Of a DNA stretch of 36,139 nucleotides, positions 1 through 28,814 are shown one piece after another. The notes under the pieces are model-generated. The model was not told where the DNA came from, did no database searches, and was given only the letters and a program-made list of their open reading frames with translations. The position numbers and the translations under genes were made by a program. Position 1 is the stretch's first letter, and the number at the start of each line of letters is the position of its first letter. Origin of the DNA: a virus (Duplodnaviria > Caudoviricetes); IMG/VR virus record IMGVR_UViG_3300012347_000089, positions 1-36,139 of that record; one strand, written 5' to 3'.

Positions 1-55
1 CATAAGCATCAGTTTCCTCAATTGCACGATTTAAAACGTCTGATTCATTTTCTAA
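1..55. repeat. Terminal 55-bp overlap identical to 36085-36139 (circular contig / assembler k-mer overlap)
   Basis: cataagcatc...ttttctaa is identical at both ends; it lies inside the tape-measure ORF, which reads through in frame. Confidence 0.95.
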
Positions 56-7190: not shown

Positions 7191-7400
7191 CTACAGCAAA
7201 ACGCTAGTATCGGTAGATTCTTTTTCGTAAAGTTCTACGCCAGTTTTTACAGCGTTTAAAATCATATCTATATCTGGATCTGGCAAACATTCAAAGTTAG
7301 GCTCATATCCAAACATATCAAAATATTGTTTTACAGCATTATTATATGCTATTTGTGCTTCCGTTGTATCTGTCTTGATACCTAAATTTATATTATTCAC
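7191..7400 (-). CDS. Small acidic hypothetical protein (possible MuF partner/immunity)
   Basis: 69 aa overlapping the MuF stop codon. Confidence 0.55.
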   Translation of the reverse strand: MNNINLGIKTDTTEAQIAYNNAVKQYFDMFGYEPNFECLPDPDIDMILNAVKTGVELYEKESTDTSVLL

Positions 7401-9363
7401 TTAGTATGCTCTTATAAAGTTTGCCCGTATCTGGGTAGAATGTATCTACTACTGTATGCCAGAATGTATTATCAGATCCGTATAGTGCAGTAAGATTCGC
7501 AAACACTTCCGTATTAGCGTTCTCTGGTGCTGATCTATAGTAAGAGTTCTTATGCCCACCATTACCGTAAGATCCGAATCCTAATAATTTATTCCGTGAA
7601 GCAGATCCAACTAAATCAGAAAACTTACCTACATTACCTTTTCTAAATATCTGGTGATTTGTCCACCCATCGCCATTGATTGCCACCATAAACTTAGCAG
7701 CATCTTTAGTTTTAAGCGCATCAAGCAATAATGCTTTTCTATATTTAGTATCTAACTCTGTAGCGATGTAAGTGGTTTCATCATTAAAGAACTTATCCAC
7801 AGAATTAAGATCAATGCCAATATCTTTAGCTTTGCTTGCTACTAGCTTATCTGCCTCAATTGCATCTAACTTAATAAACTGCTCTCTAAAATCATCCATG
7901 CTTTGCTTACGTGCTGCGTTAAACGCTGTCTGTTTAGCACTCTTTCTAGCAAATCCAGCATTGGATAAAACAATTTCAGTTTCAGCCTTTAATACATCGT
8001 CAAAATCTTTAGCACTACTTCTAAATCCAAAAGGCGTGTTACTTAGAATATTATCTAAGAAGTGACCATATTCATGCCGCCACGTTCCCTGTGTTTTTAG
8101 ATCAATTGTATCTGGGTTCTTAATGAACTTATTGCGAGCATTGTAATGTGCGCCGCCGCTACTGATCTGCACTTCTTTAAGCTGATCATCATATTTAATA
8201 ATAGCATTTTTAATATAGTTCGGCGATGCACCGAAACTATCATCATGCAACTTAGCCCATTTAGTATTAGGATTCCACGTTTTAGTAGGTGCTGCCACTG
8301 CTGGTGTTGATTCAGCTAATAGCTTGCCATTCCTCTGCTCTAATTCTTTTAGCGTGTAAACGTGACCAGATGGCGATACAAATTTGTCTAATGTTAGCTT
8401 ACCTTTGTTAAACAGTAGGGCTTTCTCTTTACCGAGAACCGTAATCTGTCTTTCTAGGCTCTGCTTAGATAGCCACTCTTGATAATTCATCTTAGCTGGA
8501 ACTTGACCATCTAAACTAGCACGGGTGCTTTCTGGCAGTTCAACATCTAGCCCCATCTCTTTAAATGATTTAAGCACAGGCACGTAACGACTTCTGCATC
8601 TAAAATGCGCTGGAATCGCTGGTTTTTTATCGCCAATTTTATAAAAGTTACCATCACGACTAGCGCAAAGTTCTGTAGTGCGTGTATCTAGCGTTGCTGT
8701 ATATCGGTAGCCCTTAATAATATCGCTATTGGCTTCATATACTTTTTGCTGCGCCATGTTTGCTGTATGTGCCACAGCAGTAATCACGACAGATTCAGCA
8801 TTAGATCGTGTGATGTTTAAAATACCGTCATTGTATTTAAGTGCAGCAGTACCGCGTATCTTTTTGATTATCTCGTTAGTTGTCTGGCTTTCGATTACGC
8901 CCATACGCACAGCATCACGGATTAACGTGGCTTTACCTTCCTCTAGTCCAGTTAGGAACTCTTTCAGCAGCTTGCCTTGAAACGGCGTATCCATTGCTGC
9001 TGCGTAAACGGTTTCTGGTGCGATTGGTAATACTGGTGCAGGTTGAACGCTCTTAATTAGCTTCTGCTGATAATCTACCTCGCTTGCGGAAAAGCCTTTT
9101 AACTCTTGATCTAAAGTTTTTGATACTTCCGCATAGGCTTGAGAATTAATCTTTCTCACAGATTGCAGCAATTGATCTATCCGTGAGATTTTGAACGCGT
9201 TAGGATTGATACGATCAAGTTCTCTGGATAGTTGAGAAAATAGATTTACATCCGACTTATTAAGTATAGCGATAATCTTTTTTGTTACGTCATTGCTATA
9301 ACCTAATGTATCGATGGCGTGTGCCACCTCTTTATTTAGAAGTTTATCGTTAGCCGTAGGCAT
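7393..9363 (-). CDS. Minor head protein (SPP1 gp7/MuF family) with C-terminal zinc-metallopeptidase-like extension
   Basis: MuF motifs ATLDTRTTELC and IPAHFRCRS; ~310-aa extension with HEYGHFLD (8062-8076) and distal NTEVFAN. Confidence 0.85.
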   Translation of the reverse strand: MPTANDKLLNKEVAHAIDTLGYSNDVTKKIIAILNKSDVNLFSQLSRELDRINPNAFKISRIDQLLQSVRKINSQAYAEVSKTLDQELKGFSASEVDYQQKLIKSVQPAPVLPIAPETVYAAAMDTPFQGKLLKEFLTGLEEGKATLIRDAVRMGVIESQTTNEIIKKIRGTAALKYNDGILNITRSNAESVVITAVAHTANMAQQKVYEANSDIIKGYRYTATLDTRTTELCASRDGNFYKIGDKKPAIPAHFRCRSRYVPVLKSFKEMGLDVELPESTRASLDGQVPAKMNYQEWLSKQSLERQITVLGKEKALLFNKGKLTLDKFVSPSGHVYTLKELEQRNGKLLAESTPAVAAPTKTWNPNTKWAKLHDDSFGASPNYIKNAIIKYDDQLKEVQISSGGAHYNARNKFIKNPDTIDLKTQGTWRHEYGHFLDNILSNTPFGFRSSAKDFDDVLKAETEIVLSNAGFARKSAKQTAFNAARKQSMDDFREQFIKLDAIEADKLVASKAKDIGIDLNSVDKFFNDETTYIATELDTKYRKALLLDALKTKDAAKFMVAINGDGWTNHQIFRKGNVGKFSDLVGSASRNKLLGFGSYGNGGHKNSYYRSAPENANTEVFANLTALYGSDNTFWHTVVDTFYPDTGKLYKSILSE

Positions 9364-9740: not shown

Positions 9741-10013
9741 TTAAACAATCGATACATTGATAGTTGAACCGCCACGATTCAGAACTGCCAAGTATCCTAA
9801 TGCGAGTGAAACAGATGATACAGTTCCAGCGCGTACTGTGATTGGCAATGTTTTCTGCACATATCCAATCTCTACGACTTCTGGTGTGCCTTGATCTTTA
9901 ACTGTAAACAGTTTTCCGTCATAAGTATTAAGCGCGATTTCGCCCACACCCACATCGGATGTAGTAGGAACTCTGCCTGTAACGTTAGTACGTTTAAATT
10001 TAACACTTGGCAT
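9741..10013 (-). CDS. Small virion protein with Mtd-N/hyaluronidase-N-like fibre domain
   Basis: VKFKR...P......GEIALNTYDGKLF. Confidence 0.6.
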   Translation of the reverse strand: MPSVKFKRTNVTGRVPTTSDVGVGEIALNTYDGKLFTVKDQGTPEVVEIGYVQKTLPITVRAGTVSSVSLALGYLAVLNRGGSTINVSIV

Positions 10014-10468
10014 TAGAACGTACCGAGATCAACATCGCCTACAGCTAAAGTAACATATCCGTTACCAGCATCTTTTGTCCACGCCATGCTTGCGTTCATT
10101 CTGATTACGCCATTCGTGCCATCTGTACCCCAGATATAACCAGCAGTACCACCAGATACAACGGCTACTTTTTCATCCGTATCGCTTTCTGGGATGTTTA
10201 ACGCTGTCTTAAAGTTAGCAAAAGTAATTTTCTTTTCTTTTTGACCAGATGCTTCACTAGCATCGTGCATCAAAATCAAATCATCAGCACCGCTAACGCT
10301 TGCTAACGTTTGCAAATCATCAATTGCTGGAACTACTGGCAGCTTAGTAGTTGCATCCGTAGCTACGTGCAGCGTACCGCGATCAGTAGTAACGAACGCT
10401 TCACCAGCAAGCATACCGCTAGTAGGTAAGTTAGCTTTTAAGCCGCGTTTAAGTTGTATTCTAGCCAT
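10013..10468 (-). CDS. Virion protein with Mtd-N-like fibre domain
   Basis: IQLKRG..ANLP....AGEAFVTTDRGTLHV; ends in DLGTF. Confidence 0.6.
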   Translation of the reverse strand: MARIQLKRGLKANLPTSGMLAGEAFVTTDRGTLHVATDATTKLPVVPAIDDLQTLASVSGADDLILMHDASEASGQKEKKITFANFKTALNIPESDTDEKVAVVSGGTAGYIWGTDGTNGVIRMNASMAWTKDAGNGYVTLAVGDVDLGTF

Positions 10469-10478
10469 ATCTCAATCC

Positions 10479-11771
10479 TTAATTAAAAGTACCACCATCA
10501 ACAGAATAGATGGCAGCTTGTTGCGTTTTGTTAATCCATTGTATGCCATCATAAACTAATAAATCGTCACTTGCTAATTCTGTGAAATCTACATCTGTTA
10601 ATGCAGCAAGTGTGCTAGATCCGCTACCACCTGTGTTGTTTTTCCATAACCCTGTAGCTGCATCATATACAAGCGTTTGTCCATTAGTAGGCGATGTAAT
10701 AGATACGTTATGTAATTCCTCTAACTCGTATCCGTTTTGAATGTTTACTTCGATTGCGCCTTGATTTTGATGGCTGCGAGTAACAATACCAACATATACA
10801 AGATGTGCAGGGGCTAATTGTTTAGAACTTGTAAATGCACCAGCAATAGTAGAACTTAAATATAACTGTACGCCTTCTGCAAACGCGCTAGTATTTAGTC
10901 CAGTAATTGATCCGAATACTGTTACATAACCATTTTGGTTAGTAAGAATATCATTGGTGATCATGCCTAGTGTTTGTGCAGATGTAGCATCACCAGTTGC
11001 AATAGCTTTTGTGACAGTGGCTTTATTGCCAGATGCGCCGTTGATATATACAACAGTGCCTTTTAGTAAAGTTGATCCAGTTTGATTGCGAACCTGTTTT
11101 ACAATGTTTGATGCTGGTGATTCTTGAGATACTGTTAAATCTACACTGCTTCCAGATTGCTCTACAATAATACTTGAATCACTAGAAGTAATAGAACTTA
11201 GTCCACCGCCTACAACTCTTAAATTAATTGTCTGACCATCTTGTGATACCAATACACTTGAATCATCAGATATAATTTGTTGAATACCAGATGCGCCACC
11301 TAAAAAATGACTACCTAAACCAGCGCGACCTTCTAAATCTACGTACTTACCCCATTTACCATTAGGCAACTCGAAGCGTAGGCTTGTGCCTTTCCATTCA
11401 TGTTTAGGTATATCACCAGTATCGCCTTTATCGCCCTTGATAGATAAGCCATCTACGCCATTGCGACCATCTTTACCATTAACGCCGTCTTTACCATCAA
11501 TACCGTTAATGCCATCTTTACCATTTTTACCGTCTTTACCATCAATGCCATCTGCGCCGCGTTCACCTTTATCGCCTTTATCGCCTTTAGCACCGTCTTT
11601 ACCGTCTATGCCGTCTTTACCGTCTTTTCCATCCTTACCATCTTTTCCAGCAGCACCACTCTCGCCCTTGTCCCCTTTATCGCCTTTGATGGCTTCTGGA
11701 ATAACAATTGCATCGACTTTATCTTTAAGTTTCGCTAATGCTTCCGCTAATAGCGCGACTAATTCACTCAT
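10479..11771 (-). CDS. Collagen triple-helix fibre protein
   Basis: Long Gly-X-Y run (GKD/GDK, ~11410-11685), then beta domains, fibre spacer motifs (NGQTLVYDAATGLWKN) and terminal DGGTFN. Confidence 0.8.
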   Translation of the reverse strand: MSELVALLAEALAKLKDKVDAIVIPEAIKGDKGDKGESGAAGKDGKDGKDGKDGIDGKDGAKGDKGDKGERGADGIDGKDGKNGKDGINGIDGKDGVNGKDGRNGVDGLSIKGDKGDTGDIPKHEWKGTSLRFELPNGKWGKYVDLEGRAGLGSHFLGGASGIQQIISDDSSVLVSQDGQTINLRVVGGGLSSITSSDSSIIVEQSGSSVDLTVSQESPASNIVKQVRNQTGSTLLKGTVVYINGASGNKATVTKAIATGDATSAQTLGMITNDILTNQNGYVTVFGSITGLNTSAFAEGVQLYLSSTIAGAFTSSKQLAPAHLVYVGIVTRSHQNQGAIEVNIQNGYELEELHNVSITSPTNGQTLVYDAATGLWKNNTGGSGSSTLAALTDVDFTELASDDLLVYDGIQWINKTQQAAIYSVDGGTFN

Positions 11772-15134: not shown

Positions 15135-15163
15135 AACTTAACATATTTATACAAATTACACAA
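15135..15163 (-). promoter_or_regulatory. Candidate sigma70 promoter for the packaging/late operon
   Basis: TTGTGT-N17-TAAGTT with TGn extended -10. Confidence 0.4.
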
Positions 15164-15587
15164 TATCAAATTTAAACGTTTTAATCTTTCCGCCGCTATA
15201 ACAATCGCGTTTGATTGCTTGCTTGATTGCATCTACAGCAGTGTAACCTAAATCCATTGCTGCTAAAGCAAAGTTACTACCAGATCCGATAGAGTAATGG
15301 CGTTCTGGGTTTAGCTTCTGCTTCCAGAATCCGTCATTAATACATACAGAAATCAAGTACAGATTACCAGAATCATATACAAAAGCTGCCGAATCATTCG
15401 TTTTAGTTGGTTCTGCGCCAAAATAACAATCCATTAGATTATCAAATTCGCAAATAGATCCACTTAGAAAAAAGAATACATTGCTGCGCTTGTACTTCTT
15501 ATCAAAATCATCATCTGTAATTAAACCGCCAGAAGTGCTTAAAGAATCATAAGCTATAACACCATCTTTATACGCTATTGTTGTCAT
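15156..15587 (-). CDS. Proteasome-beta/HslV-like N-terminal threonine (Ntn) peptidase
   Basis: MTTIAY.DGVIAYDS, SIGSGS.FALAAM and RDCYSGG motifs. Confidence 0.8.
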   Translation of the reverse strand: MTTIAYKDGVIAYDSLSTSGGLITDDDFDKKYKRSNVFFFLSGSICEFDNLMDCYFGAEPTKTNDSAAFVYDSGNLYLISVCINDGFWKQKLNPERHYSIGSGSNFALAAMDLGYTAVDAIKQAIKRDCYSGGKIKTFKFDIV

Positions 15588-18446: not shown

Positions 18447-18482
18447 TAATAAACTCCGTTCTGTTTAACCGTTATTAAGAAT

Positions 18483-18533
18483 TAGGCAGGGTGATAACGG
18501 TAATCACCTTTTCGGTCTGCATAACCTAGCCTA
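18483..18533 (-). ncRNA. Three-way-junction RNA element (c4-antisense-like), copy B
   Basis: UAGGC-UA-GGUU(AUGCA)GACC-GAAAA-GGUGAU(UACCGUU)AUCACC-CU-GCCUA; loop complementary to AUAACGGU (18468-18475) and AACGG (18456-18460, overlapping the SD). Confidence 0.7.
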
Positions 18534-18538
18534 GATGT

Positions 18539-19012: not shown

Positions 19013-19234
19013 ATGAGTTTAGAAAGTCTTAATGTGAATGGCATCAATATGGATGTTTATTACACTTGTCACGTAGAGCGAGATCCGTTAGGAACTGGCG
19101 ATAGCCCAACTGAATACTATATCGATATTACCGAGATTGAAATTGGTGCAGATACACAAAATGTATATGAAATTCTGCCAGAGTATATTAAAGAGCAGAT
19201 CATCGATCAATTAATTCAAATTGAAAGTAACTAA
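19013..19234 (+). CDS. Acidic hypothetical early protein
   Basis: 73 aa, RBS AAGGA. Confidence 0.75.
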   Translation: MSLESLNVNGINMDVYYTCHVERDPLGTGDSPTEYYIDITEIEIGADTQNVYEILPEYIKEQIIDQLIQIESN

Positions 19235-19236
19235 TC

Positions 19237-19332
19237 ATGGAAAATCTAATTATCACTGTATTAGGCTTAATCATTGTTTTGGTAATACTTGGTATTGGTG
19301 AAATATTAGCAAAAATATTTGATTGGAAATAA
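19237..19332 (+). CDS. 31-aa single-pass membrane peptide (not in the ORF track)
   Basis: MENLIITVLGLIIVLVILGIGEILAKIFDWK; fills the operon gap. Confidence 0.6.
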   Translation: MENLIITVLGLIIVLVILGIGEILAKIFDWK

Positions 19333-19397
19333 TCATGTCACAGCAAGAATTTTACGAAACCGTGCAACGAGAGCAAGAATATTTAGAGGATACGAAA

Positions 19398-19988
19398 ATG
19401 AAAAATATAGCGACAGCATTAGTAAAAGCACAAAAAGATTTTGCACCAGCATTAAAAAGCAATAACAATCCATTCTTTAAAAGCAAATATGCAGATCTAT
19501 CTGTATGTATCGAATCAGTAATTGATTCATTGCACAATAACGGAATAGCATTAATTCAAAAAAATCACGATTGTGAAAACGGTATCAAAGTTGAAACAAT
19601 CCTACTTCACGAATCTGGTGAGCAATTTAGCGGCGGTATCTTGCACGTTCCAGCAATTAAAAACGATCCACAGGCTTACGGCAGCGCACTTACTTACGCA
19701 CGTAGATACAGTTTAATGGCTACTTGTGGTATTGCCCCAGAGGATGATGATGGCAATGCAGCAAGCAAGCCAAAAGAAGCCGCAGCACCTAAACAAGTTG
19801 AAACGCCTAAACCAATATCTTTAATCACAATGGATCAAGTTACTGAAATTCAAGACTTAGCTAACGATGCTGGTGTTGAATTATCTGCAATTTGCGCTGC
19901 TTGCAAAGTTGATTCATTAAATAAAATTCCATCTACGATGTTTGCAAGTGTAATCAAAAAACTTAATGCTAAATTTATTAAGGAATAA
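19398..19988 (+). CDS. erf: ERF-family single-strand annealing recombinase
   Basis: NPFFKSKYADL and QAYGSALTYARRYSLMATCGIAPEDDDG; start 19398 has RBS GAGGA (19335 also in frame). Confidence 0.92.
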   Translation: MKNIATALVKAQKDFAPALKSNNNPFFKSKYADLSVCIESVIDSLHNNGIALIQKNHDCENGIKVETILLHESGEQFSGGILHVPAIKNDPQAYGSALTYARRYSLMATCGIAPEDDDGNAASKPKEAAAPKQVETPKPISLITMDQVTEIQDLANDAGVELSAICAACKVDSLNKIPSTMFASVIKKLNAKFIKE

Positions 19989-19990
19989 TC

Positions 19991-20206
19991 ATGCAAAAAC
20001 AAACTGATCGCTTAATGGCTTATTTAGATAAAAATAAAACAATTACGCCAATGCAAGGATGGAATGATTTAGGTATCTATCGATTATCAGATACCGTTTA
20101 TAAATTACGCAAATCTGGCGTTGCAATATCTACTAGAGTGGCAACGGTTAAGAACCGTTTTAATGAATCTTGTCGAGTGGCTAAATATGTATTGGAGTGC
20201 AAATAA
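19991..20206 (+). CDS. Winged helix-turn-helix protein
   Basis: Q..RL..YL....ITP.Q....LGIYRLS..VY.LR.SG..I. Confidence 0.75.
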   Translation: MQKQTDRLMAYLDKNKTITPMQGWNDLGIYRLSDTVYKLRKSGVAISTRVATVKNRFNESCRVAKYVLECK

Positions 20207-20358
20207 TGGATGCTGTAATTTTTGTTAAAAACTTCTACGGTATGAAAGTAGCGCAAAGTAAACGTACTAAAGATTATTACAATGCACAGCGCGAAAAGTG
20301 TATCGAAACTCTAGGTAATAAATATTGTTTAGCTAACCCAGTAAAAAGGATTAAGTAA
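20206..20358 (+). CDS. 50-aa hypothetical protein (not in the ORF track)
   Basis: MDAVIFVKNF...LANPVKRIK; TAATG-coupled at both ends. Confidence 0.7.
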   Translation: MDAVIFVKNFYGMKVAQSKRTKDYYNAQREKCIETLGNKYCLANPVKRIK

Positions 20359-20474
20359 TGGATGCAATAACACAATTTTTAAAATGGATATTTGCGTTAT
20401 TAACAATTTTTGTTTTAGGCGTTATTAGCAAATTGTTAGCATCTATTTTTATGTTCGGCTGGAACTTATTTTAG
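20358..20474 (+). CDS. 38-aa membrane peptide (not in the ORF track)
   Basis: MDAITQFLKWIFALLTIFVLGVISKLLASIFMFGWNLF; TAATG coupling, RBS AAGGA. Confidence 0.65.
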   Translation: MDAITQFLKWIFALLTIFVLGVISKLLASIFMFGWNLF

Positions 20475-20483
20475 GATACGAAA

Positions 20484-20981
20484 ATGACCTCATTATATGA
20501 ATTAAGCAGTGAGTACAAATCAGTACAAACTAAATTACTGGAATCTGATTTTGATGAGCAAACTATCGCTGATACGTTAGAAAGTTTATCTGGTGATCTA
20601 GAATCTAAAGCAGTAAATGTAGCAATGTTTATTCGCAATGTTGAATCTACAGCAGAAGCAATTAAACAAGCTGAAAAAGATATGGCAGAACGCCGCAAGG
20701 TATTGGAAAAGAAAGCAGATAGCATACGCCAGTACCTAAAAGAGAATATGCAGCGATGTGGCATCACAAAAATTGAATCGCCATACTTTGCATTAACTCT
20801 TAAAAAGAATCCGCCAGCAGTGATTATTGACAATGCAGGGCAGATACCAGCAAGTTTATATGTTTACCCAGAAGCACCAGAGCCGTTCCCAGATAAAAAA
20901 GCAATTGCTGAAAAACTTAAATCTGGCGAGGAAGTATTAGGCGCACATTTAGAGCAGGCTGAACGTTTAGATATTAAATAA
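20484..20981 (+). CDS. Siphovirus Gp157-family protein
   Basis: [45 protein letters not shown]. Confidence 0.88.
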
Positions 20982-20991
20982 GGAAAATAAA

Positions 20992-21420
20992 ATGGCATCA
21001 GTAAATAAAGTAATCATTATCGGTAATGTAGGAAAAGATCCAGAAGTTAGATATATGCCTAATGGCGATGCAGTAGCAAACTTTAGTGTAGCTACTACTG
21101 ATATGTGGAAAGATAAGCAAGGCGAAAAGCAAGAGCGTACAGAGTGGCATCGCATTGTTTGTTACCGCAAACTTGCTGAAATTGCAGAATCATACGTAAA
21201 AAAAGGAACGCCTATTTATATTGAAGGGCATATCGCATCTAACGAATGGACTGATAAAGAAGGCATCAAACGCTTAACAACTAATATTGTGACAGAGCAG
21301 CTTAGATTGTTAGGCAGCAAAGGTGATAACAGTACGAATAATAGTGCTAAAGATAGTACGAATAATAGTGCTGCACCTTCTGGTGATTTTGATTCATTCG
21401 AGGATGATATTCCGTTTTAG
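20992..21420 (+). CDS. ssb: Single-stranded DNA-binding protein
   Basis: [21 protein letters not shown]...ERTEWHR...DDIPF. Confidence 0.97.
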
Positions 21421-21425
21421 TTTAC

Positions 21426-21471
21426 GGGCGAAAGCGTTTACGGGGGTAGCCGTGAGTAGCCCACTTTTTTT
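21426..21471 (+). terminator. Intrinsic terminator-like structure after ssb
   Basis: GGGC-GAAAGCG-[UUUACGG/CCGUGAG]-UA-GCCC followed by a U7 tract. Confidence 0.55.
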
Positions 21472-21482
21472 GAGAGTTAATT

Positions 21483-21953
21483 ATGAATTGCGAAAGATTA
21501 TTAGAATTTGAAGCGCGTAAAGTTAAAGTATTTAACTTGCTAAAAGATAGATTTCTATCCGTTGCTGAAATTGCATTAGAAGCTGGAATCGAAAGAAGTA
21601 AAGCGCAGCACATAGTTACATCGTTAATGGCTAATCATCATTTACATAAAGCAAAACGTCAAGCAAGTGATCGAAAAACTGTTATCTGTTACAAGGCTAC
21701 CGATTATGAATACGTGGCTAAAGATGCAGAGCAGATCAAAAAATACATTAGTAACAGAGTTAAAAAAATGTCTGCTCTGGCACATTCTGTAGATGATGAT
21801 GTAACACCTAATTACATTGAAAAAGTAAACGATACTACTACTGTGTACAGATTACTAAGCAGAAAGCGTACAGAAGTAGAGCAAACAAAACCAAAACGAA
21901 AAACAGCATACAAAGGAATAGGATCATCTTTTGCGTTGTTTGATGGAGTTTAA
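21483..21953 (+). CDS. Hypothetical protein with probable N-terminal HTH
   Basis: LSVAEIALEAGIERSKAQHIVTSL. Confidence 0.6.
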   Translation: MNCERLLEFEARKVKVFNLLKDRFLSVAEIALEAGIERSKAQHIVTSLMANHHLHKAKRQASDRKTVICYKATDYEYVAKDAEQIKKYISNRVKKMSALAHSVDDDVTPNYIEKVNDTTTVYRLLSRKRTEVEQTKPKRKTAYKGIGSSFALFDGV

Positions 21954-21955
21954 CT

Positions 21956-22327
21956 ATGCTTAAATGGCTAGATTGTGAAGTACCTAATATTATTAAAGAA
22001 AGGTTAAAAATGACAGATCCAATTATTACAGAAACGTTTGCACCGTTAGAGCAATTAGGATTAGATAGCACACTTAATGAACGTGGCAATAGATACGGTA
22101 ATTTTGTAGGTCACGCACAAATTACACAGGAATTAAAAACTATTATCTCGTGGCATTTAAAAAATAGAGAAAAGATTTTACAGCCAGATCAACAAGAAGC
22201 ATTAGATATGATTTGCCATAAAATTGGCAGAATTATTAATGGTGATCCAGATTATGCTGATTCATGGCACGATATAGCTGGTTATGCTTCACTTGTAGAT
22301 AAACGATTAAATGGTGAGATTAAATAA
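21956..22327 (+). CDS. DUF6378-like phage protein
   Basis: LNERGNRYGNF...EALDMICHKIGRIINGDPDYADSWHDIAGYASLV; true start may be 22010. Confidence 0.75.
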   Translation: MLKWLDCEVPNIIKERLKMTDPIITETFAPLEQLGLDSTLNERGNRYGNFVGHAQITQELKTIISWHLKNREKILQPDQQEALDMICHKIGRIINGDPDYADSWHDIAGYASLVDKRLNGEIK

Positions 22328-22497
22328 TGGCAGCTACTAATGATATTACTGGCGATGCAATCCAATCACGTGGCTTATTAAGTAAAGAAGGTGAAGCTGC
22401 TTTTGATAGGATTTTTGGCGTTAAGGAACGTAAACAATACATTCCGCCACCACTTGAAATAAAAGATAAAGAATCAGAAAAGAAAGATAACGACTAG
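22327..22497 (+). CDS. 56-aa hypothetical protein (not in the ORF track)
   Basis: MAATNDITGDAIQSRGLLSKEGEAAFDRIFG...; TAATG coupling. Confidence 0.7.
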   Translation: MAATNDITGDAIQSRGLLSKEGEAAFDRIFGVKERKQYIPPPLEIKDKESEKKDND

Positions 22498-22499
22498 GC

Positions 22500-22550
22500 A
22501 AAAAAATCCCTACAGCTTTCCTCAATGTTAGCAGTTAAGAGGCTGTAGGG
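22500..22550 (-). terminator. Intrinsic terminator downstream of pqqA
   Basis: CCCUACAGC/GCUGUAGGG stem followed by AUUUUUUU. Confidence 0.65.
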
Positions 22551-22558
22551 TAAAAATT

Positions 22559-22590
22559 TGCTTACTGGAGATAAGTAAGCAGTTTTATAT
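22559..22590 (+). terminator. Intrinsic terminator ending the plus-strand operon
   Basis: UGCUUACU-GGAGAUA-AGUAAGCA followed by GUUUUAUAU. Confidence 0.55.
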
Positions 22591-22595
22591 TATCA

Positions 22596-22667
22596 CTACT
22601 TATTCATTACGTACATTGTTACTTCAAATCCAAAACGCATTTCAGTAGCAGCAGGTTTTGTCCACAT
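22596..22667 (-). CDS. pqqA: Pyrroloquinoline quinone precursor peptide PqqA (not in the ORF track)
   Basis: MWTKPAATEMRFGFEVTMYVMNK: W-x-K-P, R-x-G-F-E and the E-x-x-x-Y core; RBS GAAAGG; tandem stops TAG TGA. Confidence 0.97.
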   Translation of the reverse strand: MWTKPAATEMRFGFEVTMYVMNK

Positions 22668-22689
22668 GATGTAGCCTTTCATCAATACT

Positions 22690-22754
22690 AAGCAAGATTG
22701 CTTGTATATAATAATCTGCCTTTTATGCTACACAAACCATACGGATAATCATTA
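22690..22754 (-). promoter_or_regulatory. Candidate pqqA promoter region
   Basis: TTGTGT-N16-TATTAT (22735-22708); palindrome AAGCAA-GA-TTGCTT (22690-22703); box TACGGATAATCATTA just upstream of -35. Confidence 0.5.
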
Positions 22755-22760
22755 AATTAC

Positions 22761-22795
22761 AAAAGAAAAGCCCTATCACTGCAATGATAGGGCTT
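22761..22795 (-). terminator. Intrinsic terminator ending the late/lysis operon
   Basis: AAGCCCUAUCA/UGAUAGGGCUU 11-bp stem followed by UUCUUUU. Confidence 0.85.
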
Positions 22796-22931
22796 AGATA
22801 CGACTAAAGTCTTTTTGCGTATAAGGCAATTAAATAATAGCATTTATTGTCAAGTTTATACAATAGTATTGTAAAGTTTACTTTTTGCCTGTTTTGTAAA
22901 CTATAAGTAAATATACAGGCAAAAAATTAAA

Positions 22932-24092
22932 CTATTTGAGCATATCTGAATTGATTGTTAATCTGCTTACTTCGCCAAAATCTTTACTATATGTAATAAC
23001 TTTAGCATCACGCCCAGTAAGCCATCCGCCACGTGCAGCGTAAGCATCAGCAGGTGCTAACGTTCTATGCTGCTCTACTATCATTAAGTTGTTTTCTTTA
23101 ACATCTACGTGATGTAAATGCCCAGTATGTGCGTATGCGTATTTAGTTCTGCCAAACATCTCGCGGAATTGACCAGCAAACACTTCACTAACGTTAGCTA
23201 TTCTGCGCTTGTGACCATGATGGAAAAATAATGCAGTCTTACCAAACTCATAAGCATTATATGGATTAGGGCTTCTATCTACAGTGATTCTAGGTTCATT
23301 CTCAAACATGACAGCAAACCATTCGCGCAGCCAGATCTGTGATACTGGATCGTGATTAGCATCTGCCATAATTAAATGAACGTTTTGATGCTTTTGCAGC
23401 AGCATATTAATAATAGTGCGTAACACGCGTATAGCGCAGCGAACTACTTTAGCAAATCGTGTATCTACATCTAGTAAGTGTTTTGATGCTGGTGTTACTG
23501 CATCCATGCCATCAAAGTGCAGAAAGTCTGATAATTGTGCGAATACTGCTGTATTTGCATCTGGTGATTGGTGGATCGCTTGCTCAAACCATTTAATGAT
23601 AAGTTCCTCACCTATTTTTAAATCCCAATTATCGCCAGTTTCCTCATCCCATGAAAGCATACCAAGATGATAATCTGTAACCACATAACAATTTAGTAGA
23701 TTATCTTTACCTAAAGGTGGTGCTGCGGTTAAAGATACACGGGGTATTTCGTCTTTAAATCCTTCGATGGCATCCAACATCATCGCTTGAAATTTATTAT
23801 CGTCTAAGCGCGTTTTTAGCCATTGTAATCTAGGCTTACCATCTGCATCGTATAAAGTTGAAGTACCGCGAACTACAAAAGGATCTGGAACGATATTTAT
23901 CATATCGTGTTCTGGTGAAAAGCCCTGTGTTGCAGCTTTACGTTTTACGTTCTTGATTGCATCTTGAATAGTAGATTTATTGAGATTGAGCATTGCTGCT
24001 GCTGCTCTGATACCGCCATGTTCATTAACCGCATCTATTAATTCAGCTTGTCTAGCGGTAGCAAACTCTTTAAGCCCTATATCTATGATCAT
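22932..24092 (-). CDS. Calcineurin-like metallophosphoesterase with N-terminal HTH
   Basis: TDYHLG, SDFLH, ANHD, HHGH and GHLH motifs; GGIRAAAAMLNLNKSTIQDAI HTH. Confidence 0.8.
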   Translation of the reverse strand: MIIDIGLKEFATARQAELIDAVNEHGGIRAAAAMLNLNKSTIQDAIKNVKRKAATQGFSPEHDMINIVPDPFVVRGTSTLYDADGKPRLQWLKTRLDDNKFQAMMLDAIEGFKDEIPRVSLTAAPPLGKDNLLNCYVVTDYHLGMLSWDEETGDNWDLKIGEELIIKWFEQAIHQSPDANTAVFAQLSDFLHFDGMDAVTPASKHLLDVDTRFAKVVRCAIRVLRTIINMLLQKHQNVHLIMADANHDPVSQIWLREWFAVMFENEPRITVDRSPNPYNAYEFGKTALFFHHGHKRRIANVSEVFAGQFREMFGRTKYAYAHTGHLHHVDVKENNLMIVEQHRTLAPADAYAARGGWLTGRDAKVITYSKDFGEVSRLTINSDMLK

Positions 24093-26031: not shown

Positions 26032-28389
26032 CTATTGTGCGTTAGAGTTAGCGAATGGATTTTCTGCAAAAGCCATGTAAATAAATGTACCACCAGAAGC
26101 ATTACTATCTGCACCTGTACTTCTTAATTTAAATCCATTCGATAAAATATCACTAGGATGGCTACTATCCTCTGCATTTGCAAGGTTAGGATATAAAGCT
26201 GCTGCTGGTTGATTATAAGTTGATCTAGTAGTATCGTAAACAATCCAGTTACCAGTAGTATCAATTCGTTTATACATAATGTATTTTGGTTTAAATCCAG
26301 TATAAACAAAACTTCCATCCGCACTGCCATTACCTATGTAAGAACCAAATTTACTAAATCCTGCAATTTCAGCAAAAGCATAAGCTACATAAGTGCCAGA
26401 ACTTGCATTAGTATTTCCATCTGTACCAAGATTAATTACAGAACTTGTAGGAATTGCACTATTCCACATACTTGATAAAGTTGCTTTTCCAGCAGTAGTA
26501 TTTAATACTAAATATTCAGTACCAGATAATCCAATATGCCATGCTGACCATGCTTGAATTGTGCTTAATTTTTTTACAAAAATCATTTTAGGTGCAACAC
26601 CTAAACCATGACCAACAGTAGCATTAGCACCTGTACCAGTATAAGTAACAATGCTAAATCCAGCAGTTGAATTTACTTGTACATTAGATGTAATAGATCC
26701 ATTAGTATTAGATACAGTAGTGCCACCATTAACTTTCCATTGCCATCCTACATAAGTTCTAGTGCTTTGATTATAAGAACCATTAGCACCTAAACTAAAT
26801 CCGTTAGAATTAAATGATGTTATGCCATCTGTGACAGTTTGTTCTGCATCATTGCCATTAGGAATTAATAATTTTGTAACTCCTCTAGATGAATCATGTA
26901 ACAGATTATTATAATTAATGCTTCTTGCTTTCATCCAAACAATATCTGGTTTAAAACCAGCAGCATTTACCACTGTTTGCGTAGATGAATTGCCACTATA
27001 CAAAGTAGCATCCATATATTGATTGCCCTTCTTAATCGTAGCAGCAGGAAGGTTAGCTGTGCATAGTGCTTTGAAGCCTGTAGGTGGAGTGTAAGCGAAT
27101 GAGCGTTGACCGAAGTTCCAATATGATGTTGCTTGCGCACCAGAATCCGCATCACCGCCAGCAGGATAATATATCCCATTTGTTAAGCCACTAAATGCCG
27201 TTCCTTGTGATACATTATTTTTGTAAAATACAAGTGTGCCAGCATCGGCATCAAAAGCAATTCCGATTACATCATTAACGCCATATGTTGAGCCATAAGT
27301 AGCTTGAGTAGCATTATTATATGTCTTTCCATTCCATCCATAGTATGCCCAGCCAAAAGCGTTCTGTCCGACAAAACTATTTAGATTTACGCCATCTTTA
27401 CAGATTCCAATCATATTCTGTAAGCCATTAGTACCAGCAGTCATTTCCCAGTACCATTTTCCAGAACTTACTCCGATTGTACCTACCACAGTAGATTCAC
27501 CAGATGCAGATACTACTGTTAAATTACCGCCATTTACAGAAAGTGCAGATGTTTTATTGAGTGGATTCATTACACAATAATTACTATTCGGTTGAGTACC
27601 ACTTATAACAGAACCATTGCCACTAGGCACATCAAGCATCCAACAATCATTTATCCCAGCACTACGAGTAAAGTTATTAAGTGTCCAGTTATTACTGTTA
27701 CCACTTGAATCGTAGCCTAGTGTTGTAGTGCTTGTGCCGTTAGAGAATGGTAAATAGAAGCCATTAGTGCCGTATGTACCTGTATATTTTTTAGCTACCC
27801 ATTGACCAGTAAGTAAGTCTGTTTCACCAAAAGCAGCAGGTGTTAATGCTTGACCGTCAATTAAATAAACATCAGTCATATAACCATCTAAATAACCGCC
27901 TCCCGTTCCGTTTTGTCCAATCCAATGTAATTGATTATTATTAATAAAAAAATCAGTATTTTGTGTTGGATAAGTTCCAGTAAGGGCTTGTAGGATTCCG
28001 TTTACATAAACTTTAAATCTATTTGTATTTGTTGCTTGAGTTGTATCTACTGAAAATACTATGTGATACCAAGCGGCAGGGTCTCGAAAAACTGCTGATG
28101 AAGTTAAGTCACCATTAACAACAGCACCAATATAATTAAATAAATTTAATTGGTTTGATGAATTAAAACAAAAATTTGTCTGATTTGTTGCTGAGCCAAC
28201 TTGGATTAATTTTATATCTGAGCCAAAATTTCCTCGCTTAAGCCAAAAACTGTAAGTAAATGTTTTACGATTACCTGCACTTGCAGGTGTTCTGCTCAAA
28301 TATTGACTACTTGCACTTTGAAAGCGCAGCGAATTAGAGATTGGATAACCGCCCTCTGAAATAGCATTACTATTTTGAAGTAAACTCAA
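26032..28389 (-). CDS. Tail fibre/receptor-binding protein with LamG (ConA-like) and SPRY domains
   Basis: SLRF..QYLSRTP, FRDPAAWYHIV, SSGKWYWE, DVIGIAFDADAGTLVFYKN, GFKPDIVWMKAR repeats; probable TTG start at 28389 (MSLLQNSN) with RBS AAAGGG. Confidence 0.85.
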   Translation of the reverse strand: MSLLQNSNAISEGGYPISNSLRFQSASSQYLSRTPASAGNRKTFTYSFWLKRGNFGSDIKLIQVGSATNQTNFCFNSSNQLNLFNYIGAVVNGDLTSSAVFRDPAAWYHIVFSVDTTQATNTNRFKVYVNGILQALTGTYPTQNTDFFINNNQLHWIGQNGTGGGYLDGYMTDVYLIDGQALTPAAFGETDLLTGQWVAKKYTGTYGTNGFYLPFSNGTSTTTLGYDSSGNSNNWTLNNFTRSAGINDCWMLDVPSGNGSVISGTQPNSNYCVMNPLNKTSALSVNGGNLTVVSASGESTVVGTIGVSSGKWYWEMTAGTNGLQNMIGICKDGVNLNSFVGQNAFGWAYYGWNGKTYNNATQATYGSTYGVNDVIGIAFDADAGTLVFYKNNVSQGTAFSGLTNGIYYPAGGDADSGAQATSYWNFGQRSFAYTPPTGFKALCTANLPAATIKKGNQYMDATLYSGNSSTQTVVNAAGFKPDIVWMKARSINYNNLLHDSSRGVTKLLIPNGNDAEQTVTDGITSFNSNGFSLGANGSYNQSTRTYVGWQWKVNGGTTVSNTNGSITSNVQVNSTAGFSIVTYTGTGANATVGHGLGVAPKMIFVKKLSTIQAWSAWHIGLSGTEYLVLNTTAGKATLSSMWNSAIPTSSVINLGTDGNTNASSGTYVAYAFAEIAGFSKFGSYIGNGSADGSFVYTGFKPKYIMYKRIDTTGNWIVYDTTRSTYNQPAAALYPNLANAEDSSHPSDILSNGFKLRSTGADSNASGGTFIYMAFAENPFANSNAQ

Positions 28390-28814
28390 GATAAAGCCCT
28401 TTCTAAATCCCACCCTCTAAATAATCTCATTTTTAATACAGAATAAGATACATTTAATTCTTTAGCCCAATCTGTTAAGCACATTGATTTTCCATTAAAT
28501 TCAATAATATTATTACGAGATGTATTTCTCATCTGTTCTTTATATGTAGCCCATCTGCAATTATCTTTTGAATAGTCTTTATTTGTATCTATTCTATCCA
28601 AAGTCATTCCTTCTGGCTTACTTCCCATATCATTATAAAATTTTTCAAAATCATGCCATTCATCGGAAACTTTAATACCTTTAGCCCCATAATCTTTGAA
28701 TGATTTATGTTTTTCATAATAACAGCGTTGTTTCATTCCGCACCATAAAGAATATTCTGGCAGGTGTGATAATCCATGCGTTGTATTACGTTCTGTTAAA
28801 TCTTGTCTTTTCAT
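28386..28814 (-). mobile_element. Free-standing HNH homing endonuclease gene
   Basis: THG....EY..W.GMKQRC...YGAKGIKV..EW..F..FY.DMG.KP...TLDRID.NKDYSKDNCRWAT..EQ.RN. Confidence 0.88.

Follow-up and report, generated by a model that had tools for sequence, protein, structure and literature searches.

A PQQ precursor gene in a tailed-phage genome and the host-type palindrome upstream of it

The pqqA locus and the phage genome around it

The window analysed here, 36,139 nucleotides long, is a whole viral record with a 55-bp direct terminal repeat and constitutes a circular tailed-phage genome of 36 kb; despite the direct terminal repeats, CheckV estimated its completeness at 75%. The genome encodes a terminase, a portal, a P22-type coat protein, a tape measure, a lambda-like tail tip, an endolysin and ERF/SSB recombination genes (the Pfam scan of the window covered 39 ORFs). 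On the minus strand, 7393-9363 and 10013-11771 comprise a Mu F-like head protein, much of whose C-terminal region is unassigned, as well as collagen-repeat and Mtd_N proteins between the portal and head genes. A 143-aa ORF starting with MTT (15156-15587, minus strand), directly ahead of the terminase genes, gave a weak match, below the cut-off, to the proteasome-subunit family PF00227. The pqqA gene is located where the plus-strand recombination genes (19013-22497) meet the minus-strand tail and lysis genes, as an earlier note had described it in placing the gene at the convergence of the early and late operons. The following features were found at and near the locus:

22327..22497, plus strand: 56-aa ORF, last of the plus-strand operon and convergent downstream neighbour of pqqA; no family match
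22558..22582, detected on both strands: bidirectional terminator-like hairpin at the boundary between pqqA and the convergent plus-strand operon
22596..22667, minus strand: pqqA, 23-aa PQQ precursor peptide with E15-x3-Y19 (ORF and profile matches)
22675..22679, minus strand: ribosome-binding site AAAGG, read from the sequence
22685..22707, minus strand: predicted 5' leader hairpin, placed where transcription is expected to begin (z -2.3 against shuffles)
22713..22718, minus strand: putative -10 element, a weak hexamer (CAGATT) placed by its spacing of 29 nt to the box centre
22739..22755: 17-bp palindromic box common to host PQQ-supply promoters, reading TTAATGATTATCCGTAT on the minus strand (host-trained matrix)
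22768..22795, minus strand: terminator-like hairpin between the cassette and the late operon (12-bp stem and T tract)
22875..22933, minus strand: long inverted repeat directly after the phosphoesterase gene (fold -18.3 kcal/mol)
22932..24092, minus strand: HTH-fused phosphoesterase (phrog_704), the upstream neighbour, which served to recruit relatives independently of pqqA
26032..28413, minus strand: SPRY/lectin tail protein, an independent hint at the host

In PQQ synthesis, PqqE together with PqqD cross-links the Glu and Tyr of PqqA, PqqB and PqqC complete the cofactor, and one PqqA peptide is spent per PQQ made. The 23-aa ORF that the earlier note had taken for this precursor is an uninterrupted minus-strand frame of 23 codons with an ATG start and a TAG stop, its coordinates exact. 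The profile check exceeded both PqqA family cut-offs about twofold (PF08042, 42.4 bits against 21.1, E 6e-11; TIGR02107, 40.4 bits against 20). The ribosome-binding site claimed along with it is also there, 8-12 nt before the ATG, and SD-like stretches, judged by eye, precede other pqqA copies as well. The frame falls within the 22-25 aa taken as typical and contains both the W-x-x-P leader and the E-x3-Y core. The peptide equals that of 128 host copies, from which the gene differs by synonymous nucleotides only; given this identity, phage PqqA would likely be converted to PQQ. PHROGs gave no match for the peptide.

A search of the window and 166 further viral loci found no pqqB, pqqC, pqqD or pqqE. 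A complete viral pqq operon was rejected on this basis, and the gene stands alone in the window, as had been noted. The tyrosine integrase (PF00589) and resolvase (PF00239) families were not found in the record, and the idea of pqqA as a phage attachment site was discarded accordingly. No tRNA was found in the window, and the single Rfam match is unrelated: an int-alpA RNA at 18469-18536 (minus strand, 39.6 bits against a cut-off of 35.8), between the VRR-NUC and replication genes. Terminator-like sites numbered 3, compared with 0.4 in shuffles.

Metagenome runs holding the sequence were mostly labelled freshwater or aquatic. Contigs bridging pqqA and its phage flanks were recovered from three DNA runs of three studies (X1 record 5, 22495-22988; X2 record 18, 21984-22892; X7 record 25, 21400-22758), the best of which may be the source sample of the window. 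These contigs connect the gene to phage DNA without the chimeric join that the earlier note had considered, and an assembly chimera was therefore rejected. In relatives from runs X7 and X19, positions 22759-22896 (138 nt, including the upstream terminator) are swapped for 31 other letters; the replacement stops three bases from the box, the contigs still include the box position, and the long inverted repeat lies only partly inside the replaced segment. No RNA run was among the listed holders of the sequence, and run X19, labelled RNA-Seq, is probably DNA.

Spread of viral pqqA and the probable host

Of 50,697 phage records searched with tblastn, 12 matched. Nine are cultured Methylophilaceae phage records of unrelated phage types (P19250A, Venkman, MEP301, MEP401, MEP402 and four Melnitz); the remaining ones are a spring-water phage with an identical peptide and two weak Acinetobacter records. 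Six of the 12 loci were opened. Their pqqA neighbourhoods all differ, and four lack annotation at pqqA; in the other two a hypothetical gene is called on the complementary strand, as GenBank shows over the pqqA of MW202481 (L001:2119-2187) and of Melnitz (L006:3001-3066). The Melnitz pqqA adjoins a tRNA-Leu gene.

An estimated ~1,400 IMG/VR stretches match a degenerate pqqA pattern. In all 120 fetched matches and in the six GenBank phage loci the frame is open and of the usual length; core conservation is built into the IMG/VR set, since the core residues were part of the search pattern. A set of 80 loci free of this bias was recruited through the phosphoesterase, without regard to pqqA. The gene was present in 19 of them, and both Glu and Tyr were kept in 18/18 complete copies. 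Across 16 distinct alleles pN/pS was 0.17 (uncorrected); change among relatives is dominated by synonymous substitutions, in line with the variation foreseen in the earlier note. These alleles indicate that viral pqqA is under purifying selection. A divergent viral PqqA (L314:7273-7338) has changes beside E and Y and a near-zero box score, its frame being intact. Judged by sequence, the gene of the window is a candidate auxiliary metabolic gene: it is located between viral genes within a bona fide viral genome, is host-derived and belongs to a set under purifying selection.

In whole records, pqqA occurred in 21 of 50 phosphoesterase relatives (50 of the 80 being covered) and in 8 of the 15 near-complete ones. 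Among capsid relatives it was found in 1/31 of the longer ones (of 80); four other close relatives are fragments of 12-18 kb, and near-complete distant ones had pqqA in 0/4. Because its presence is so uneven among phosphoesterase and capsid relatives, pqqA is an accessory gene that probably follows the host and not the virion lineage.

The window-type peptide pattern was found in 79 listed GTDB loci (of 127 fetched), of which 66 are named Methylophilaceae. The others comprise nine proteobacteria without a name, three loci from one Acidovorax-labelled MAG and one short Flavobacteriaceae-labelled contig. A 3.5-kb contig (L202) of a Flavobacteriaceae-labelled MAG carries a Methylophilaceae-type pqqA together with a phage phosphoesterase 75-90% like viral ones, and is probably a misbinned phage piece. 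For the SPRY tail protein, the best two of 55 phage records were the OM43 phage MEP301 and the pqqA-bearing MW202481. The peptide is thus of the Methylophilaceae type that the earlier note had named, and the methylotroph host proposed there is likely on both lines of evidence. Searches with the terminase and the phosphoesterase gave no Methylophilaceae phage among the matches listed. Because the capsid protein was not found in 301 family genomes and these thus yielded no prophage relative, we infer a Methylophilaceae host for the window phage and do not regard it as shown. The pqqBCDE genes that the phage lacks are present in Methylophilaceae genomes, that is, in the family of its presumed host. 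In small genomes, tandem pqqA pairs lie ~200 nt apart (L137, L138, G054:C7, G075:C1:359569-359823), the second copy apparently having no box of its own.

The upstream palindrome in phages and hosts

The palindrome was first spotted by side-by-side reading of upstream regions. A 17-bp matrix was then trained on host pqqA upstream regions only and applied with a threshold score of 8. The box at 22739-22755, centred 80 nt 5' of the pqqA ATG, was the best of all positions in the 36 kb, with a score of 12.3 compared with 8.6 for the next. Scores above 8 were reached in 121/130 host regions (the training set), 68/110 IMG/VR pqqA regions, 7/15 phosphoesterase-recruited regions, 5/6 GenBank phage loci and ~1% of dinucleotide shuffles; as these counts include related sequences, they overstate independence. 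The other 42 of the 110 viral copies, and MEP402, stayed below the threshold. At the same loci a box preceded 6 of 517 other viral genes. Behind the phosphoesterase, a box scoring above 5 was found in 12/13 loci with pqqA versus 1/57 without it, and one scoring above 8 in 9/13 versus 0/57. In carrying this palindrome upstream, phage pqqA shares the sequence feature by which the host PQQ-supply regulon is defined here.

In hosts, a -10-like hexamer begins 52-54 nt past the box centre in 111/122 cases, a weak second site lies 23 nt downstream of the first, and there is no -35 consensus. Viral boxes showed the hexamer at +52..54 in 27/75 and at +29..31 in 31/75, with 8/75 fitting both spacings, 25/75 fitting neither and a background of 0.14 per spacing interval. 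The short viral spacing equals the position of the weak near site of the host, and was found in 8/10 window-type cassettes (background 0.12). The window phage accordingly has one site, at the promoter-proximal position of the host; the host arrangement of two sites 23 bp apart, the far one 53 nt before the -10, is absent. A generic sigma-70 scan, which returned 2 sites versus 3.5 expected, missed the window promoter. A leader hairpin with z < -1.5 is predicted in 11/14 syntenic cassettes and 30/45 IMG/VR leaders, with differing sequences.

Five single-contig genomes of the family (G072, G075, G081, G083 and G094; 1.3-1.8 Mb), which may overlap the training set, were scanned for the box. A pattern match was located 100-170 nt upstream of 17/19 pqqA copies, and 8 of the 10 exact sites were at pqqA. 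Boxes also stood 5' of detached pqqB operons (3 genomes), of PqqU-like TonB receptors (2 genomes; the loci are truncated, and PqqU is the best family, below the cut-off), of XoxJ-like proteins (2 genomes) and of TIGR04557 and TIGR03866-like accessory genes, all of these in intergenic DNA, and one site overlaps the start of a TIGR04559 gene. Many sites with a single mismatch fall inside coding DNA or 5' of unrelated genes. Only 1 of 30 methanol dehydrogenase genes had a box, and the box was rejected as an element of a methanol-dehydrogenase regulon. In G072 an exact box precedes a 261-aa gene without known function (L385:1501 / L528:4997), followed by genes which we take to resemble those for rhodopsin and carotenoid synthesis. 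Neither near pqqA nor in ten 20-kb host regions was a regulator gene convincingly and consistently found beside the boxes. Within 5 kb of pqqA, a NarL-type regulator cluster occurred in 9 of 80 host loci and an OxyR-like one in 10; at L135:4011-4916 an OxyR-like LysR gene is convergent with pqqA.

Proposed function of the cassette and comparison with known systems

We consider the locus to be a cassette that supplies precursor under host regulation, its output raised by the number of phage genome copies, and give this reading a probability of roughly two in three. A host activator signalling PQQ need would bind the predicted box (sites at about -65 and -42, no -35 consensus) and fire the phage promoter, from which host RNA polymerase would transcribe pqqA. 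Hosts would use a strong far and a weak near site 23 bp apart and the window-type phage a single strengthened near site, which might, speculatively, lower the firing threshold. The 5' hairpin and the terminators would yield a short, stable mRNA. Phage replication would multiply the gene, and host PqqBCDE would convert the extra peptide. As PqqA is consumed and appears dosage-limited, Methylophilaceae having 3-12 pqqA copies versus one pqqBCDE according to the part of PMC4109929 available to us, it would be the cheapest gene to add. The extra PQQ would keep the XoxF-type methanol dehydrogenase loaded, which is taken as the main energy entry of the host (xoxF is the top transcript in an OM43 strain; PMC5120137), and so supply energy for progeny.

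The earlier note had the phage gene act after host transcription declines. This timing was not supported: flanked by terminator-like hairpins, pqqA forms a promoter-like unit of its own with a box of the host type, and this arrangement suggests that it relies on the polymerase and a regulator of the host. An activating rather than repressing role of this putative regulator is suggested by the position of the site. Because cells recycle PQQ and the phage encodes no dehydrogenase, a single infection may call for little new cofactor. A broader reading is more tentative, and we hold it at somewhat less than even odds: unrelated Methylophilaceae phages may repeatedly have captured pqqA together with the host PQQ-supply operator, many of them turning its two sites into one strong site placed for activation, so that a 170-bp plug-in would sense cofactor need and answer from every genome copy.

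Another purpose of the extra PQQ is unlikely, though it draws on the same gene and box evidence as the precursor-supply reading. The cofactor, which has antioxidant action, could protect against oxidative stress, serve other quinoproteins or, released at lysis, favour the next hosts through the PQQ importer. The box indeed marks PqqU-like importer and accessory quinoprotein genes and not the dehydrogenases, and the OxyR-like family near host pqqA fits a stress response; but the OxyR neighbour inspected is convergent, which is a weak link, XoxJ-like genes carry the box, and pqqA is concentrated in phages whose host family makes its living by PQQ-dependent methanol oxidation. Quite unlikely is a regulatory effect in place of supply, in which boxes on replicating phage genomes sequester the host regulator, or PqqD/PqqE are taken up by excess peptide, and the PQQ regulon is shifted. 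It would explain why the box is kept across unrelated phages, often rearranged to one site, and why both leader and core of some phage peptides differ from those of hosts. Against it, the box of the window is single, is found only 5' of pqqA at a fixed distance from a -10-like element, and such boxes disappear where pqqA is absent; the cross-linked residues are invariant in the complete copies found without selecting for them.

Very improbable in our view is the timing of the earlier note, with pqqA expressed late as the last gene of the late operon to make up for host precursor once host transcription falls, and the box a remnant of capture. The gene is on the late-gene strand. In many relatives the phosphoesterase stop codon and the box directly adjoin, with no terminator between them, and the X7/X19 relatives lack that of the window, so that read-through is possible in such relatives. 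In the window, however, two hairpins lie between pqqA and the late operon, divergent phages retain the box with a spacing that falls into two distinct classes, and several cultured phages have pqqA opposite to both neighbours. We see still less reason to regard the box as a Fur site through which the cassette tracks host iron status. The window site agrees with the Fur consensus at 14/19 positions (by eye), and one Fur-consensus match scores 11.3 with the box matrix, the two motifs resembling each other; yet in four family genomes the matches to this consensus (<=3 mismatches) fall at feoB and siderophore-type receptors and none at pqqA, and host boxes differ in outer bases and in their tandem layout, which disfavours Fur. 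A neutral passenger, an integration site or an assembly chimera, which a stretch of 35 nt identical to a host locus and the piling up of host pqqA contigs on the gene in metagenomes might suggest, is largely refuted by the missing integrase and resolvase, the junction-bridging contigs, the protein-level purifying selection and the presence of pqqA in cultured phages.

Gene callers miss pqqA, and it is therefore overlooked in surveys of viral metabolic genes. The nine matching records of cultured Methylophilaceae phages all contain it, so that phage-host pairs for a test of the idea are already in culture. The shared palindrome offers a mechanism for when phage pqqA would fire, defines a host PQQ-supply regulon and could serve as DNA bait for the regulator of PQQ synthesis; industrial PQQ is made from methylotrophs. 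Gene and box together can help to assign hosts to uncultured aquatic phages, and the cassette would be a near-diagnostic marker of methylotroph phages if the repeated-capture reading is true.

The doubt about novelty voiced in the earlier note was justified, as viral pqqA has already been published: Coutinho et al. 2020 reported it, in the part of the paper available to us, in the Lake Baikal T4-like virus VP_266, a predicted Methylophilaceae phage (PMC7678222). Both cases have a virus-encoded PQQ precursor and a proposed boost of methanol oxidation, in silico only. VP_266 is T4-like and also carries a methanol dehydrogenase, in contrast to the 36-kb window phage with its lambda-like tail and pqqA alone, and the available account of VP_266 describes no promoter element. 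The same text states that P19250A lacks such genes; this is contradicted by KX815270.1:28085-28153 (L003:3001-3069), an intact, unannotated pqqA of P19250A with a box. Reservoir-sediment viruses have pqqA, pqqD and pqqE among their auxiliary genes (PMC13188868), which the accessible text interprets as phosphate solubilisation, describing neither a methylotroph link nor a regulatory element. Term searches found no viral pqqA in the main texts on Melnitz (where PQQ appears only as a medium supplement), MEP401/402, MEP301 and MG-MTP1/RSA-MFP1 or in that of an ocean AMG catalogue, although their supplements could list it. PQQ regulation is called unclear in the part seen of PMC9851590. No description of the box or of a pqqA regulator was found in mainly open-access literature; a study of the several promoters of pqqA (Ge et al. 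2015) could hold one. Viral pqqA itself is thus known; the shared host box, the regulon that it marks and the one-site rearrangement are new here as far as earlier descriptions were found.

Closest to the phage cassette are the orphan, multi-copy pqqA genes of Methylophilaceae, which encode the identical peptide as a stand-alone unit with a terminator and the same upstream palindrome. They differ in having two sites, a strong far and a weak near one, where window-type viral cassettes have a single site at the near position. The pstS and phoA genes of cyanophages carry pho boxes and are auxiliary genes under host regulators. The likeness is that a captured metabolic gene keeps its host operator and answers to host sensing; the cyanophage products are an enzyme and a transporter, whereas that of the window is a peptide substrate consumed in the pathway, under a host regulator that is putative.
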